Sequence record: PP400788
Reading direction: 5' to 3' (one strand)
Length of the DNA: 64,000 bases
Source of the DNA: Escherichia phage FL33
The notes below the pieces were generated by a model. That model was not told where the DNA came from, did not search any database, and saw only the letters and a list, made by a program, of their open reading frames with translations. Positions within the stretch are counted from its first letter, which is position 1, and the number at the start of each line of letters is the position of its first letter. Below, piece by piece: positions 4,697 to 61,326 of this stretch. Position numbers and translations under genes: made by a program.

Positions 4697-4726
4697 ATTA
4701 TACCACATCCTTGTGGTAAAGTAAAC
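4697..4726 (-). promoter_or_regulatory. T4-type early promoter (GTTTAC ... TGGTATAAT)
   Basis: Minus-sense GTTTAC 4721-4726, extended -10 TGGTATAAT at 4697-4705. Confidence 0.6.
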
Positions 4727-6546
4727 TATTGGCTCATCCATTCTTTACGAAGGTCAGCATTATCTCCCATGAGCATTTCAAAAAGCTCTTTCCAGTTCTC
4801 AGGAAGTTTAACAACATCATATACTGGGTTTTGAATCATCTCACGATATTCAGATTTTTCCAAAGAGCCAAGTCCCTTAATATAACGGATGCTATGTTTA
4901 GGTAGAGCATCTTTAGCACTCTCATATTCAGCGACTGTATAAAACCATTCTTGTTTTTTACCGACCTGAGCGATGATTACAGGAGTTTTGACAAAGCGAA
5001 TTCTTCCTTGTTCAAACAGTTCTGGCCAATTACTAAAAAATCCGAGCAGAGAAGGATAAATGCTTCCTAGACCATCATGGTCAGCATCAGTCATAATAGC
5101 AATATTATGATAATTCAAGTTTTCGGCTTTTTCACCAAGAACTAATCCAGTGATTGCGCAAATATCAAACAGCTCTTTGTTTTTAAGCATATCAGCATAT
5201 GACATACCCCAGCTGTTAAGAACTTTACCACGCAATGGATAACCGCCATGAAGTTCTTTATCACGAACATCAATAAGATATCCGATAGCAGAATCACCCT
5301 CAGTCAAGAAAAGAGTAGTGTCAGCATCTTTACCGCAAAGATTCGCTTTAATATGTTTGTGAACCTTAGCTTTAGAGGCCTTTTTAGCTGCTTTAGTTTC
5401 TGCTGCTTTTTCTGCCGCCAATTTACGAGCTAATGCTGCTTCAACAATAGGCATAATCAAGGCTTCGTTTTTAAGAAGTGCCTGAGCAATTTTCTTAGCA
5501 TCTAATTGGATATGATTACGAATATCACCATACGTTGACGTTAAACGTTCTTTAGTCTGAGAATCAAAACGCATGTTGCTCATGTCTCTAATAAACATCA
5601 ACATTGTGAGACATTCTTTAACACGAGCTTTAGTGACTTCAATACCCTTATATTTCTTTTTAATACCAGGCAAAAGATGTTCACAGATATCATCCATTAC
5701 ACATTCAACATGATGACCACCATTTTTAGTATGGATGTTATTCACATAAGTTAAATGACGGAAGCCATCTGGTGATGTTGTGAATGCTATAGAGACTTTA
5801 TCATTTTCTTGAATGATGTTATCTTCGCCAAATTGTTTAGCAAATCGTTTAAAATTACCATCAACCTTTTTACCATTAAATGTGAACTTGATATCAGGAT
5901 AAACGACTGCCAATGTTTGAAGTCGGTCTAAAGTAATATCTAAATAAATTTGAGATAAATTATGCTCTTCAAATGAAGAGAAATCAGGAGTGAAGATTAC
6001 TTTAGTGCCTTTACCTTTAGATTTCTTAGAAGACCATGATTTGTTTTCCATTCCGTTTGAACAGTTAACAGTGATTTCGTTTTCGCCATCTGACGTGATG
6101 CCTGTAAACAACGTAGAGAAGATATTAGTTAAACTACTCCCGACGCCGTTCATACCACCAGTCTTGCGTTCAGAGTCATCACCAAAGTTACCACCGGCCT
6201 TTGGAATAGTCCAGGCTGCTACAGGCCCAGGAATTTGTTCACCCGTTTGGTCGGTAACTAAACCTTGAGGAATACCACGTCCGTTATCTTCCACCGAAAC
6301 TTGATTATTTTTAATTTGCACATCAATTTTATTTGCAAACTTAAATGATGTACGAATAGCTTCATCAACCGAGTTGTCAATAATCTCATCGATTAATTTA
6401 ACCAGGCCAGGAACATATTCAACTTGTTGATATTTACCAAACAAAAAACGCTCGTGGGCTTCTTTAGCCGAAGAACCAATATACATACCACTACGTTTCT
6501 TAATATGTTCTACATCTGACAATACCTTAATTTCATTTTTAATCAT
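4726..6546 (-). CDS. 39: DNA topoisomerase II large (GyrB-like ATPase) subunit gp39, unsplit 606-aa form including the region T4 encodes as gene 60
   Basis: GyrB-like N-terminus; 606 aa is close to the recalled sum of T4 gp39 and gp60; single uninterrupted ORF. Confidence 0.9.
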   Translation of the reverse strand: MIKNEIKVLSDVEHIKKRSGMYIGSSAKEAHERFLFGKYQQVEYVPGLVKLIDEIIDNSVDEAIRTSFKFANKIDVQIKNNQVSVEDNGRGIPQGLVTDQTGEQIPGPVAAWTIPKAGGNFGDDSERKTGGMNGVGSSLTNIFSTLFTGITSDGENEITVNCSNGMENKSWSSKKSKGKGTKVIFTPDFSSFEEHNLSQIYLDITLDRLQTLAVVYPDIKFTFNGKKVDGNFKRFAKQFGEDNIIQENDKVSIAFTTSPDGFRHLTYVNNIHTKNGGHHVECVMDDICEHLLPGIKKKYKGIEVTKARVKECLTMLMFIRDMSNMRFDSQTKERLTSTYGDIRNHIQLDAKKIAQALLKNEALIMPIVEAALARKLAAEKAAETKAAKKASKAKVHKHIKANLCGKDADTTLFLTEGDSAIGYLIDVRDKELHGGYPLRGKVLNSWGMSYADMLKNKELFDICAITGLVLGEKAENLNYHNIAIMTDADHDGLGSIYPSLLGFFSNWPELFEQGRIRFVKTPVIIAQVGKKQEWFYTVAEYESAKDALPKHSIRYIKGLGSLEKSEYREMIQNPVYDVVKLPENWKELFEMLMGDNADLRKEWMSQ

Positions 6547-7216: not shown

Positions 7217-7636
7217 TTATTCCTTAAAGTGCGCTTTCAGCATCTGATACAAGGACCATGCTTGTTCGTTATTTTCAATAGTAACTTTCATTACCGGGAA
7301 TTCTGTGAAATCTTCTATTTGTTCTTGCTCTTCCTGCTCTTGTTCTTCAGCTGCCTGGTATGGATTTTCAACTTCATCAAAGAACCCAGCTTCACTTTTT
7401 GAAAGCCAAATAAAGTCTTCATCCAAAACATCTTTATCAGGAGATAGTACTAAATTTCCAGTAGATGACAAAATTTTAATAGGACGCCCAAGAGCGTCCA
7501 CATCTAAAATTTTAAAAGGATACATACCTAAACGGCGCGCATAAATTCCGTTATTAATATGGTCTTTAATAAAATTTTCTTGAGCTTGTTTATTTTTAAA
7601 TTGATACCATTTATTAACTTCAAATCTAATAGCCAT
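7217..7636 (-). CDS. hypothetical protein, 139 aa, acidic EQ-rich middle
   Basis: ORF; stop overlaps downstream start. Confidence 0.55.
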
Positions 7637-7851
7637 TAATAAATTTCCTTCCAGTAAGTTGTGCCATCTTCAGTAATTTCACGAAATACGCCGTAAATTG
7701 GCTGTTTATCACCAACCTTTTCATAAACATAAACCGAAGTCAAGTGAGTAAACTTAATGGTGTGTTCCTTTTGAACCACTACCAAATCTGGATCGAATAA
7801 TACATCTTCAAATTCGTCATTAGTGCATTTCTGAACAGTTTTACGTTTCAT
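7636..7851 (-). CDS. hypothetical protein, 71 aa
   Basis: ORF abutting next gene start. Confidence 0.5.
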
Positions 7852-7950
7852 TACAATTTCCTCATTAATTGAACAGTGGAGCGATGCGTTTCAGAAGAGT
7901 AGCAGCACCTTTGGCAAATTTTCCATTTTATTCTCCAAGTTGTTTTCTGT

Positions 7951-7993
7951 ATCAGTAGTTGATATTGATATAGTACCATAATCAACTACTGAT
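7951..7993. repeat. perfect 13-bp inverted repeat (ATCAGTAGTTGAT / ATCAACTACTGAT) with 17-nt spacer
   Basis: Read directly in the 270-bp non-coding gap 7852-8122. Confidence 0.8.
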
Positions 7994-8122
7994 GTATATA
8001 GTTTTATGAAAAAAATTTTAAACTTTATGCATAGAGAGCTTTGCTATAATGTTTAATCCAACTTTCAGGAATGACTTTGTATGTTCCTAAAAATACCACG
8101 TTATACAACTTAACACCGTCTT

Positions 8123-8512
8123 CTACCCACTGATGGTAATGTATCCACACATAGCACGAGTATAAACAGCCTTTCCATCATCTGGGATGAATTTAAATTC
8201 ACAAGGAGCAATGAACTTAATAGATTGACCGAGTTTCCACTTAAAGTCTACACCTACATGCGAAGTATCAATCGTTTCAATTCCTTTAGCGGGAACAGCT
8301 TTCAAAAACGCAGATTCAAGAAATTTCGCACGAACATAGCCAAACTGAGGTTTAGACTTTCCATCTTTAGGAATGATACGCACTTTTACTTCAGAATCTT
8401 CATCTTTAACACCATGCTTAAGCTGAATGCTTACAATTTCGACCAATTTTCCTGCTGCTTTAGAACGGGATTTATCAGATACACGAGCAATTTCACCAAT
8501 ATTAATAATCAT
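8123..8512 (-). CDS. hypothetical protein, 129 aa
   Basis: ORF downstream of early promoter 8557-8586. Confidence 0.55.
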   Translation of the reverse strand: MIINIGEIARVSDKSRSKAAGKLVEIVSIQLKHGVKDEDSEVKVRIIPKDGKSKPQFGYVRAKFLESAFLKAVPAKGIETIDTSHVGVDFKWKLGQSIKFIAPCEFKFIPDDGKAVYTRAMCGYITISG

Positions 8513-8556
8513 AGTTATCTCTCACTTGTTAAAAAGATTTTATACTCCACAGGACC

Positions 8557-8586
8557 ATTATACTCTGGTCCCAAGAGTTTGTAAAC
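8557..8586 (-). promoter_or_regulatory. T4-type early promoter
   Basis: GTTTAC 8581-8586, 18-nt spacer, TATAAT 8557-8562 in minus sense. Confidence 0.55.
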
Positions 8587-8588
8587 TA

Positions 8589-9122
8589 TTAATTTAAAAT
8601 AGCTACCACCGCACTACGAGGTACTACGCTAAAATCACCTGCATGAACAACGTTCAGAAGTTCAACGCCATCTTCAATCCACTGGTCTGTTACCCAACCA
8701 CAGACCGAAATAAATGGAGTCTTGATAGCTACCGCATGAGTTAGAAGGTCAGTAGGATCGCATTCTTGAAAGAGGATGAACTCTGCTTCATAAACCAGGT
8801 TTTTCTCTATTTTGTTATTGTCTAAACGACGACCGTGGACAATATAAGATTTAGTAAACCATTTACTTTTTTCAAAATCTTCAACAATAAATTCACCTTC
8901 GCCAAAAACATCAGTCAGAATTTTATGGCCGGAAATCAAGGCATTAGTTTTAATTTCAGGTTCAACCAATTTGTAGGTTTTGCCGATTTCAATAGCGGTA
9001 GTCATAGTAGTTTCCTTAATTTCCAGTGGTTTAACAGGGCATACATAAGTGCTTACAACATCAAAATCAATCAGTTTAGTTACCGGATTTGGTATGTATT
9101 CAGGATTATAATTAAATTTCAT
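8589..9122 (-). CDS. hypothetical protein, 177 aa
   Basis: ORF. Confidence 0.55.
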   Translation of the reverse strand: MKFNYNPEYIPNPVTKLIDFDVVSTYVCPVKPLEIKETTMTTAIEIGKTYKLVEPEIKTNALISGHKILTDVFGEGEFIVEDFEKSKWFTKSYIVHGRRLDNNKIEKNLVYEAEFILFQECDPTDLLTHAVAIKTPFISVCGWVTDQWIEDGVELLNVVHAGDFSVVPRSAVVAILN

Positions 9123-26238: not shown

Positions 26239-26631
26239 TCACTTAGTCAAATTTTTTACGCATGAATTATAAGAATTCACTACATACTCCATCGGAGCAT
26301 TTTTACCAGTACGCCATTGGTAATTATTAGCCCAATTAGCCCAAATTTCGGCGCAGTAGTTTTCAATTTTTTCTTCGCGTGTAATTACATCTGAATTACG
26401 ATATGCTTGGGCAGATTCATCTGGACGAATAGCCTCATCAAAATTCGCCTGCATTTGTTCTACTGTCTGTTTTGGAGCTTCTTTATAACACTTGACATTA
26501 GGATTATAAAACTTGCTTGAACAGTTTACAATTTTTCCTACATCAGACTGATTTACTACCGGTCCTTGAGCTACACAACCAGTAAGACCTAATGCAATAA
26601 CCAAAATAGCGATTTTCATTTCATTCTCCAA
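26239..26631 (-). CDS. putative lipoprotein, 130 aa
   Basis: Signal peptide with lipobox LTGC. Confidence 0.55.
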   Translation of the reverse strand: MENEMKIAILVIALGLTGCVAQGPVVNQSDVGKIVNCSSKFYNPNVKCYKEAPKQTVEQMQANFDEAIRPDESAQAYRNSDVITREEKIENYCAEIWANWANNYQWRTGKNAPMEYVVNSYNSCVKNLTK

Positions 26632-26653
26632 ATCCGTATCAGTTGATAGTTGT

Positions 26654-26683
26654 ATAGTACCATGGAAGAACAGTCTTGTAAAC
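26654..26683 (-). promoter_or_regulatory. T4-type early promoter
   Basis: GTTTAC 26678-26683, TGGTACTAT -10. Confidence 0.55.
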
Positions 26684-26770
26684 AGTTTTGTGAAAAATTT
26701 TTCAATGAATTCAAAGGGTCCAGAATTATCTGTTTTTCATAAGTATAGATTTATATTACTTGTATGAAAA

Positions 26771-52528: not shown

Positions 52529-53505
52529 TTTAATAATACCGTTTCAGCAATTTCTTCCCAACCGTTTTTGTCGGTCATAATAAAGTCAGCAAGATAAAGA
52601 GCAGTACGCAGTGAAACATTGCGTAAACGATTAACATTAACTTTCATCCATGATAATGCTTTATAAGTTTCTTCATCAGAAAGACCGCGCTTTTGCATCA
52701 TGTCAGTTGAAAGAATAACATCTTCAACCCTGACCATAATTTCTTCATTGGTGTGAACACCCAAATCCAAATAAACTGAGCGGGACACTAATGCTTGTAA
52801 GTGTGGGGCAAGTTTAGTACCACGGTCTAATTCGCGGTCAATATCAACGTTTGTGATAAAAACAATCGTTCCTTTAAATTCAAACTCACGGTCAATGCCT
52901 TTTTCTTCTAAGTAAGAAGATGCAGTGCTCCAGCAGACTTTACGGGTCTCTCCAGTGTCCAGAGCGGCTTTTAGAAGATTAAGAATATCCATATCAGAGA
53001 AAACATCCACATCATCAATCAAAAGGACAGAATTCTCTTCACGATTATTCCAAAGCTGCTCATAAAGACCAATACCAGAGATTTTACCATTAATGCTTTT
53101 ATATTCAATGTATCCAATATCATTTGCTTTATTTAAAGCTTTATCTAAAGAATACGTTTTACCAATACCTGCTGCGCCAGAGATAATTAATGAACGAATA
53201 TTTCCATTAATAATACCATTCGTCATCATTCCCATAACATTAAATCTTTTATTAATGCGGGTTTTCATATCTTCATATGATTCTTTAACTTCTTCAACTT
53301 TTACACCATCATATGAAATATCTGATTTGTAAACCCAAACACCACGACGTTTACCGTCAATTTCAACAAAAACTTTACCATCTCCTTGTGCATCTACCGG
53401 AGCATTATCTGGGAACCATTCGCCTAAGAGCTCAAAAGTTCCAGAGATTTCTTTACCGAAGTAGATACCCTTATTGATAGTTACAGTTTTCATTTTATTC
53501 TCCAA
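52525..53505 (-). CDS. P-loop ATPase (AAA-like), 326 aa
   Basis: Walker A GAAGIGKTY, Walker B VLLIDDVD. Confidence 0.6.
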   Translation of the reverse strand: MENKMKTVTINKGIYFGKEISGTFELLGEWFPDNAPVDAQGDGKVFVEIDGKRRGVWVYKSDISYDGVKVEEVKESYEDMKTRINKRFNVMGMMTNGIINGNIRSLIISGAAGIGKTYSLDKALNKANDIGYIEYKSINGKISGIGLYEQLWNNREENSVLLIDDVDVFSDMDILNLLKAALDTGETRKVCWSTASSYLEEKGIDREFEFKGTIVFITNVDIDRELDRGTKLAPHLQALVSRSVYLDLGVHTNEEIMVRVEDVILSTDMMQKRGLSDEETYKALSWMKVNVNRLRNVSLRTALYLADFIMTDKNGWEEIAETVLLK

Positions 53506-53527
53506 ATCCGTATCAGTTGATAGTTGT

Positions 53528-53557
53528 ATAGTACCATAAAGCTTTATGCTTGTAAAC
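53528..53557 (-). promoter_or_regulatory. T4-type early promoter
   Basis: GTTTAC 53552-53557, TGGTACTAT -10. Confidence 0.55.
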
Positions 53558-53588
53558 AGTTTTGTGAAAAATTTTTGAAATAAAAAAA

Positions 53589-53608
53589 AGGGAGCCCGAA
53601 GGCTCCCT
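53589..53608 (-). terminator. strong intrinsic terminator after the nucleotidyltransferase gene
   Basis: GGGAGCC-UUCG-GGCUCCC then UUUUUUUU in minus sense. Confidence 0.7.
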
Positions 53609-61296: not shown

Positions 61297-61326
61297 ATTA
61301 TACCACAGTCAAGAGGAAAAGTAAAC
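61297..61326 (-). promoter_or_regulatory. T4-type early promoter
   Basis: GTTTAC 61321-61326, TGTGGTATAAT -10. Confidence 0.55.

Follow-up and report, generated by a model that had tools for sequence, protein, structure and literature searches.

A hairpin-bearing early-promoter cassette at the motB-cef junction of a T4-type phage

The interval at 7852-8122 of the 64,000-nt stretch of Escherichia phage FL33 analysed here (the window) is the junction between motB and cef of a T4-type phage. It consists of the frameshifted tail of motB, an early-promoter cassette that carries a hairpin, and the stump of a small gene that preceded cef (Table 1). Our preferred reading, to which we give a probability of roughly 0.7, is that the cassette is of the promoter-early stem-loop (PeSL) type and that its hairpin acts on RNA read through from motB. 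The main value of the analysis lies in a correction: what looked like a large gap is not a new non-coding element.

Anatomy of the motB-cef junction

Comparisons with sequenced phages identify the window as Tequatrovirus (T4-like phage) DNA. Phage FL34 matches the 271-nt interval at 100% identity, and T4 strain wild (KJ477684) matches all 271 nt at 95.6% identity, with cef and motB on either side. Identities to the interval are 94.8-95.6% for T4 and 95.0% for T2, and among the 444 Tequatrovirus records containing 80% or more of it, most match over the full length at 93-98%. The genes of this region all lie on the minus strand, as do the functional parts of the interval. Their order is gp39 (fused, 606 aa), a 39.1-like gene, 39.2, goF, cef (7636-7851), the interval and motB, followed beyond motB by a MotB-like 177-aa ORF, a motB.2-like ORF and dexA. 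The large subunit of the topoisomerase (4726-6546) is a single 606-aa ORF, a T2-type fusion of gp39 and gp60, whereas T4 has split genes 39 and 60 with mobA and the gene 60 bypass.

The interval seems long because a 1-nt deletion has thrown the tail of motB out of frame. Positions 8025-8122 are the final 33 codons of motB, and the MotB profile is divided between two ORFs, one of 129 aa (8123-8512) matching profile positions 1-130 and one of 41 aa (8025-8150) matching positions 131-166. In an alignment that includes T4 MotB, the motB genes of T4 and T2 run on to a stop codon equivalent to window 8025-8027. The same split is present in FL34, where it is annotated as two CDS. The deletion site is not a homopolymer, so the change may be genuine and inactivating instead of an error of sequencing; motB is a non-essential, toxic gene. 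The true intergenic stretch is 7852-8024, or 173 nt, compared with 170 nt between cef and motB in T4. The long non-coding gap of 271 nt reported by the first-pass annotation is thus largely an artefact, made up in part of motB codons (8025-8122) and of an ORF stump (7891-7926).

The end of MotB (8025-8150) shares a C-terminal motif, QW(I/V)EDGV(E/K)L(L/Y)NVV...VVPR, with the neighbouring 177-aa ORF (8589-9122) and with genes upstream of cef in distant relatives (loci L013, L014 and L017). These sequence resemblances suggest that the MotB-like paralogues form a family with a common C-terminal domain.

On the other side of the cassette, an 89-aa ORF (phrog_3720) lies between motB and cef and is intact in T2, SA21RB, AR1 and many other phages. 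In T4 and the window, 208 nt of this ORF have been deleted at a microhomology, AAAA(Y)T. The length of the deletion is not a multiple of 3, and its junction falls at about 7914/7915. What is left at the 5' end differs in length in one relative (L009) and is therefore a remnant rather than a conserved peptide. The earlier suggestion that the interval is the scar of a lost mobile gene is right as to the loss, since the 208-nt deletion leaves 11 codons; nothing shows that the gene was mobile.

Table 1. Features of the motB-cef interval, in window positions
Feature	Position	Strand	Remarks
Out-of-frame 3' end of the deleted ORF	7852-7890	-	Carries the cef ribosome-binding site GAGG (7860-7863)
Remnant ORF, MENLPKVLLLF and stop	7891-7926	-	ATG, 10 codons and stop; from alignment with T2 and SA21RB
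Leader with SD and ATG of the former ORF	7924-7950	-	SD GGAG (7933-7936), ATG (7924-7926); polymorphic among relatives
Hairpin 3' arm, ATCAACTACTGAT	7951-7963	-	Starts ~7 nt past the -10, about +1 to +13; family-wide leader
Whole stem-loop	7951-7993	-	13 bp, 2x2 internal loop, 5 bp (one G-U), CUA loop
Extended -10, TGG and TACTAT	7970-7978	-	Hexamer 7970-7975; in the apical part of the hairpin
Hairpin 5' arm (sense), ATCAGTAGTTGAT	7981-7993	-	Occupies nt 1-13 of the spacer (18 nt) that separates ATATAC from TACTAT
Degenerate -35 hexamer, ATATAC	7994-7999	-	Changes at -36 and -34 relative to GTTTAC
A/T-rich UP-element-like region, AGTTTAAAATTTTTTTCATAAAAC	8001-8024	-	Aligns with sisters 53478-53590, 26604-26716 and 375-470 and with the RB69 e.8-upstream cassette
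3' part of motB	8025-8150	-	Last 36 residues and stop TAA (8025-8027); frame differs from that of the 129-aa ORF
1-nt deletion in motB	8134-8135	-	G in T4 and T2; from alignment

The early-promoter cassette and its hairpin

We searched the window with the interval by BLAST and aligned the same-strand copies. Copies of 7920-8022 occur at 53487-53580, 26613-26705, 399-467 and further places. The alignment shows that they share the UP region, the -35, TGGTACTATA, the leader, the SD and the ATG. The sister cassettes, on the minus strand, consist of an A/T-rich tract (AAAATTTTTCACAAAAC), GTTTAC, an 18-nt spacer and TGG-TACTAT, followed by a conserved leader (containing TATCAACTAC) and then by GGAG and ATG. 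Judged by these elements, the sister copies are T4 early promoters. The main point, which the first-pass annotation had missed, is that the inverted repeat forms part of a T4 early-promoter cassette on the minus strand, of which the window has further copies. T4 early promoters are reportedly listed by Miller et al. (2003).

The predicted promoter of the cassette before cef resembles a canonical T4 early promoter (UP element, GTTTAC, TGn, TAnnAT) in its UP-like tract, its 18-nt spacing, TGGTACTAT at the extended -10, which is common to five sister early promoters in the window, and its conserved leader (TTGGAGAATAAAATG, found also in the cassettes at 53.5 kb and 26.6 kb). It differs in the -35, where the T4 early consensus GTTTAC occupies positions -36 to -31 (PMC1524935, PMC4122927) and the cassette has ATATAC. 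The latter hexamer is invariant among the Tequatrovirus copies that we read. With a -35 off consensus at two positions, the promoter may be weak or dead; a generic scan of the gap for promoters and terminators called neither this promoter nor a terminator.

The cassette is not tied to cef. Upstream of e.8 in RB69 (L065, 395-510), a copy shares the UP tract, -35, -10, leader, SD and first four codons (ATGGA-AATT), matching from the UP tract through these codons, with an ordinary spacer and no repeat. The same cassette thus stands before e.8 in RB69 and before cef here, and therefore serves different genes in different genera. Since the RB69 copy lacks the repeat, the arm in the spacer is the derived part of the hairpin.

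The perfect 13-bp inverted repeat with its 17-nt spacer, as first annotated, is real, and as an imperfect repeat it reaches 20 nt, leaving a loop of 3 nt. The 64 kb contain no other perfect repeat of 13 bp or more with a loop of 3-40 nt, and first-order Markov simulations gave a mean of 0.1; this is unusual, but not overwhelmingly so for a scan of the whole window. The 5' arm, ATCAGTAGTTGAT, is the exact reverse complement of the leader sequence ATCAACTACTGAT, with TGGTACTAT between the arms, and the spacer sequence that bears it is unique to this cassette. With the start site placed from its spacing to the -10, the 5' arm spans about -31 to -19, ahead of the predicted start.

As sense RNA, the 111 nt at 7920-8030 fold with -23.6 kcal/mol (z -4.2). 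In a 60-nt promoter context the 18-bp hairpin reaches -20.1 kcal/mol in the sense orientation versus -16.6 kcal/mol in the antisense, and as single-stranded DNA it has -11.5 kcal/mol (z -5.1). The hairpin ends 14 nt before the SD (stem end 7951, GGAG at 7933-7936). The main stem leaves the SD free, and GGAG is touched only by a weak outer helix of A-U and G-U pairs in the 111-nt fold.

A stable intergenic hairpin shortly past a stop codon resembles an intrinsic terminator, and other annotators have labelled it as such: in SA21RB the label comes from WebGeSTer, and in SA20RB, too, the 43-nt match coincides with a terminator feature. It differs from one in that no U tract follows it (the tail is ACAGAAAACAAC) and only 4 pairs of the 13-bp stem are G-C. 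With no U tract and no terminator called in the gap, classical intrinsic termination is unlikely.

Conservation, sister hairpins and competing explanations

Conservation in relatives had been proposed as a check on the repeat, and the repeat is kept. The 43-nt hairpin is identical in 479 of the 497 Tequatrovirus records with full coverage, whereas for the 43 nt that follow downstream the figure is only 62 of 487. The 43 nt upstream are uninformative as a control, because the window carries a rare allele of T-run length there. Two lineages have three leader changes immediately past the stem and none within it. The hairpin variants that we read include loop changes in IME340 (TACTAT to TATTAT) and ECO07P2 (loop to the family consensus), and an A-to-G change in the 5' arm of SA21RB that gives a G-U pair in the sense RNA. 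No compensatory change was seen in the arms among the Tequatrovirus copies read, and an exact-pattern scan of IMG/VR for the loop returned mostly unrelated contigs and the same few Tequatrovirus contigs, with no new arm variants. The conservation of the hairpin is partly explained by the -10 and TGn elements and by the family-wide leader.

T4-like relatives whose Cef proteins are 51-68% identical also show a hairpin at the cef promoter; it surrounds the -10, and its arms are different (GGTGTAGGAG/CTCCTACACC, TGGTAGGAGC/GCTCCTACCA, AGGGCTAT/ATAGCCCT and ATAGGGTA/TACCCTAT). Across 12 distinct sequences aligned without gaps, changes on both sides affect 7 of the 11 pairs, giving 25 compensatory cells versus 10.6 ± 2.3 in shuffled alignments (0 of 500 reached this value) and 2-7 in slid-partner controls. 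The numbers of G-U and A-C pairs in this alignment are too few to separate a constraint on RNA from one on DNA. The helix of the distant relatives is in another register than that of Tequatrovirus, with the axis shifted by about 2.5 nt, so that the distant hairpin counts as an analogous structure at this locus rather than as an established homologue.

To place the hairpin among its neighbours, the spacer, -10 and leader were folded for 15 early promoters of the window. Six of them (-10 ends at 61297, 51392, 14618, 9650, 8557 and 7970) form hairpins with energies of -18 to -24 kcal/mol whose loop holds the -10; the other nine have no such repeats, and tend instead to have a G/C hairpin with a T run upstream or a small hairpin within the spacer. 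Among the six is the motB promoter (8533-8585, minus strand; TTTACA-17-TATAAT), where GGGACCA..TGGTCCT and an outer helix enclose the -10 at -22.1 kcal/mol. Four others (61297, 51392, 14618 and 9650, minus strand) have the 5' arm in the spacer and a 3' arm that pairs with the Shine-Dalgarno sequence of the next gene. The arm sequences of the six are unrelated to one another. Each native pair of spacer and leader folds better than all 28 combinations with swapped halves (permutation test of the mean, p < 1e-4), and in all six the sense RNA, with 1-3 G-U pairs each, is more stable than the antisense by 3.5-9 kcal/mol.

These observations bear on the possibility that the hairpin is a neutral by-product, in which the spacer of a decaying cassette was overwritten by an inverted copy of the leader (by template switching or quasi-palindrome correction) and the repeat is conserved only because Tequatroviruses are so similar. 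Such an origin would fit a 3' arm that is simply the family-wide leader and a novelty confined to the spacer arm, the sisters, including the one upstream of RB69 e.8, having unrelated spacers. It would also fit the degraded -35, the deletion of the downstream ORF and the lack of compensatory change seen within Tequatrovirus. We nonetheless regard it as unlikely: the hairpin has stayed identical in the great majority of records while the adjoining 43 nt are polymorphic, such variants as we read leave the stem intact or produce a G-U pair, five other early promoters of the window have the same arrangement with specific arms of their own, and distant relatives keep a hairpin at the cef promoter by covariation.

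A palindrome that works as DNA, either as the operator of a dimeric protein from phage or host or as a cruciform that hides the -10, is very improbable. The arms do bracket the -10 and the start site in the classic geometry of a repressor site, with centres 30 bp apart (about three helical turns); the single-stranded DNA fold is stable (z -5.1), and the shut-off of T4 early promoters is described in the literature as incompletely understood. However, the G-U pairs and the greater stability of the sense strand in six of six promoters favour RNA over duplex DNA, such repeats are missing from nine of the 15 early promoters, and the arms differ completely among the six promoters and the relatives, which leaves no common recognition sequence. 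The protein-binding site considered earlier is accordingly unlikely as a sequence-specific one, the sister promoters having equivalent hairpins with unrelated arms.

We give hardly any credence to an antisense or small-RNA promoter directed against motB from the plus-strand extended -10, TTGCTATAAT, with the inverted repeat as an associated signal. The element noted at first pass is present (plus strand, 8041-8050, with an exact TGnTATAAT at 8042-8050), and a short T-rich plus-strand stretch follows the hairpin; the promoter function proposed for it finds no such footing. TTGCTATAAT lies inside the motB codons K-S-Y-H, its TATAAT hexamer overlapping Ser-Tyr-His, and the hexamer varies synonymously, reading TATAGT in both T4 and T2 and, in a further relative (L006), TGTAGT. 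It has no -35 element. The repeat lies upstream of TTGCTATAAT, not downstream, and would therefore be absent from the antisense transcript. Matches to TGNTATAAT number 16 in the window versus 7.6 ± 3.0 expected, seven of them on the plus strand versus about 3.8 expected per strand; the site is not exceptional, such matches occurring at roughly chance frequency. An Rfam scan of 7600-8600 (E <= 10) returned only chance-level snoRNA and CRISPR matches, far below gathering scores, and ARAGORN found no tRNA or tmRNA.

Nothing supports the replication or packaging signal that had also been suggested. As for other classes of phage promoter, the late-promoter motif TATAAATA is absent from the gap, inspection by eye revealed no convincing MotA box with a correctly spaced -10 there, and the published table of T4 middle promoters has none between P39 (5349) and Pdex.2 (10058). 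In the whole window TATAAATA occurs twice versus 10.5 ± 3.3 expected copies, a scarcity consistent with avoidance in the early region.

Read-through RNA and PeSL cassettes

The preferred reading, a PeSL-type cassette whose hairpin acts on read-through RNA, starts from geometry. Because the 5' arm lies at about -31 to -19, an RNA started at the cassette promoter would lack it and could not form the hairpin. Read-through RNA from the strong motB promoter, whose -10 ends at 8557, would carry both arms and form the 18-bp hairpin, which starts 31 nt past the original motB stop codon. Most probably, then, the hairpin is confined to read-through RNA from motB. There it could act as an attenuator, as a barrier at a 3' end or as a processing signal, and would separate the motB message from that of cef, goF and 39.2, which the cassette promoter would re-initiate. 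We infer the attenuator role by analogy, from PeSL experiments in RB49 on G/C-rich stems. Our search of the literature returned no usable maps of T4 transcription starts or 3' ends that cover cef and motB.

PeSL cassettes of T4-like phages have been described by Arbiol et al. 2010 (PMC2839356) and Comeau et al. 2014 (PMC4122927), and the cassette before cef has their published architecture; the element is of a known kind, and its region has been studied very thoroughly. Like them, it is a roughly 100-bp repeat with an A/T-rich tract upstream, a predicted early promoter of the sigma70 type plus a stem-loop that overlaps the -10, and it recurs at several intergenic sites of the same genome, as the same-strand copies in the window show. 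The PeSL promoter consensus of PST and T4 is TTTACW-N17-TAYWAT, with an A/T-rich region and with an SD and start codon at the 3' extremity (PMC4122927). The cassette reads TATACA-N17-TACTAT, one mismatch from this consensus, with TGn and the A/T tract present, and has at its 3' end the SD and start codon of a small ORF (89 aa, phrog_3720), reduced here to a stump. The 43-nt hairpin is identical in phage PST (KF208315), whose genome was analysed in PMC4122927. It departs from the published elements in three respects: the stem is A/T-rich and lacks a U tract, while the RB49 and phi1 stems tested as terminators are polyG/polyC; PMC4122927 draws the stem-loops of PST and T4 "just upstream" of the promoter, while the present one straddles the -10; and its -35 is degenerate.

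PeSLs cluster at indels (PMC4122927), and this cassette too is sited in the hyperplastic early region, flanked by indels and gene replacements. In phages of the SA21RB/RB7/REP1 type (SA21RB: L005, 1591-2010), the match to the window breaks off at about 8031, where the cassette has its upstream edge, and a different MotB-like gene precedes the cassette. The cassette thus marks a gene-replacement breakpoint in these phages. As DNA, the cassette of about 100 bp would offer a repeated patch of homology at which T4-type genomes recombine.

By analogy, the closest mechanistic precedent would be the transcript-specific inhibitory hairpins of the T4 genes e, soc, 49 and I-TevI (reviewed in PMC3014915). 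In both cases a promoter lies inside the hairpin region, so that long RNAs have both arms and RNAs from the internal promoter, whose start is here predicted, lack the 5' arm. The precedents differ in being late promoters whose hairpins sequester the SD or AUG; the present promoter is early, and its SD is not in the stem. The four sister hairpins at 61297, 51392, 14618 and 9650 are closer to them, in that the SD is covered, and at these sites read-through RNA would be masked from translation and promoter-proximal RNA would not.

Relative to the published work on PeSLs, the statistics of the hairpins as a class and the covariation at the cef promoter in other T4-like genera are small additions. 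The pairing of each spacer with its own leader and the sense bias, in six of 15 early promoters, support a role at the RNA level for the stem-loop half of the PeSL. Such a role could be tested cheaply in T4, which has the identical 43-nt hairpin. A broader and more tentative possibility is that hairpins with an arm in the early-promoter spacer are a general, selected device of T4-type early regions that marks RNA by its origin. If so, a hairpin would be present in read-through RNA, with SD masking, a block to exonucleases or attenuation as its effect, and absent from promoter-proximal RNA. This would insulate every small early gene against transcription from upstream, and the hairpin before cef, maintained across genera by covariation, would be one conserved instance. 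The principle known from the late promoters of e, soc and 49 would then extend to early promoters, and the stem-loop of the PeSL would gain a function at the RNA level.
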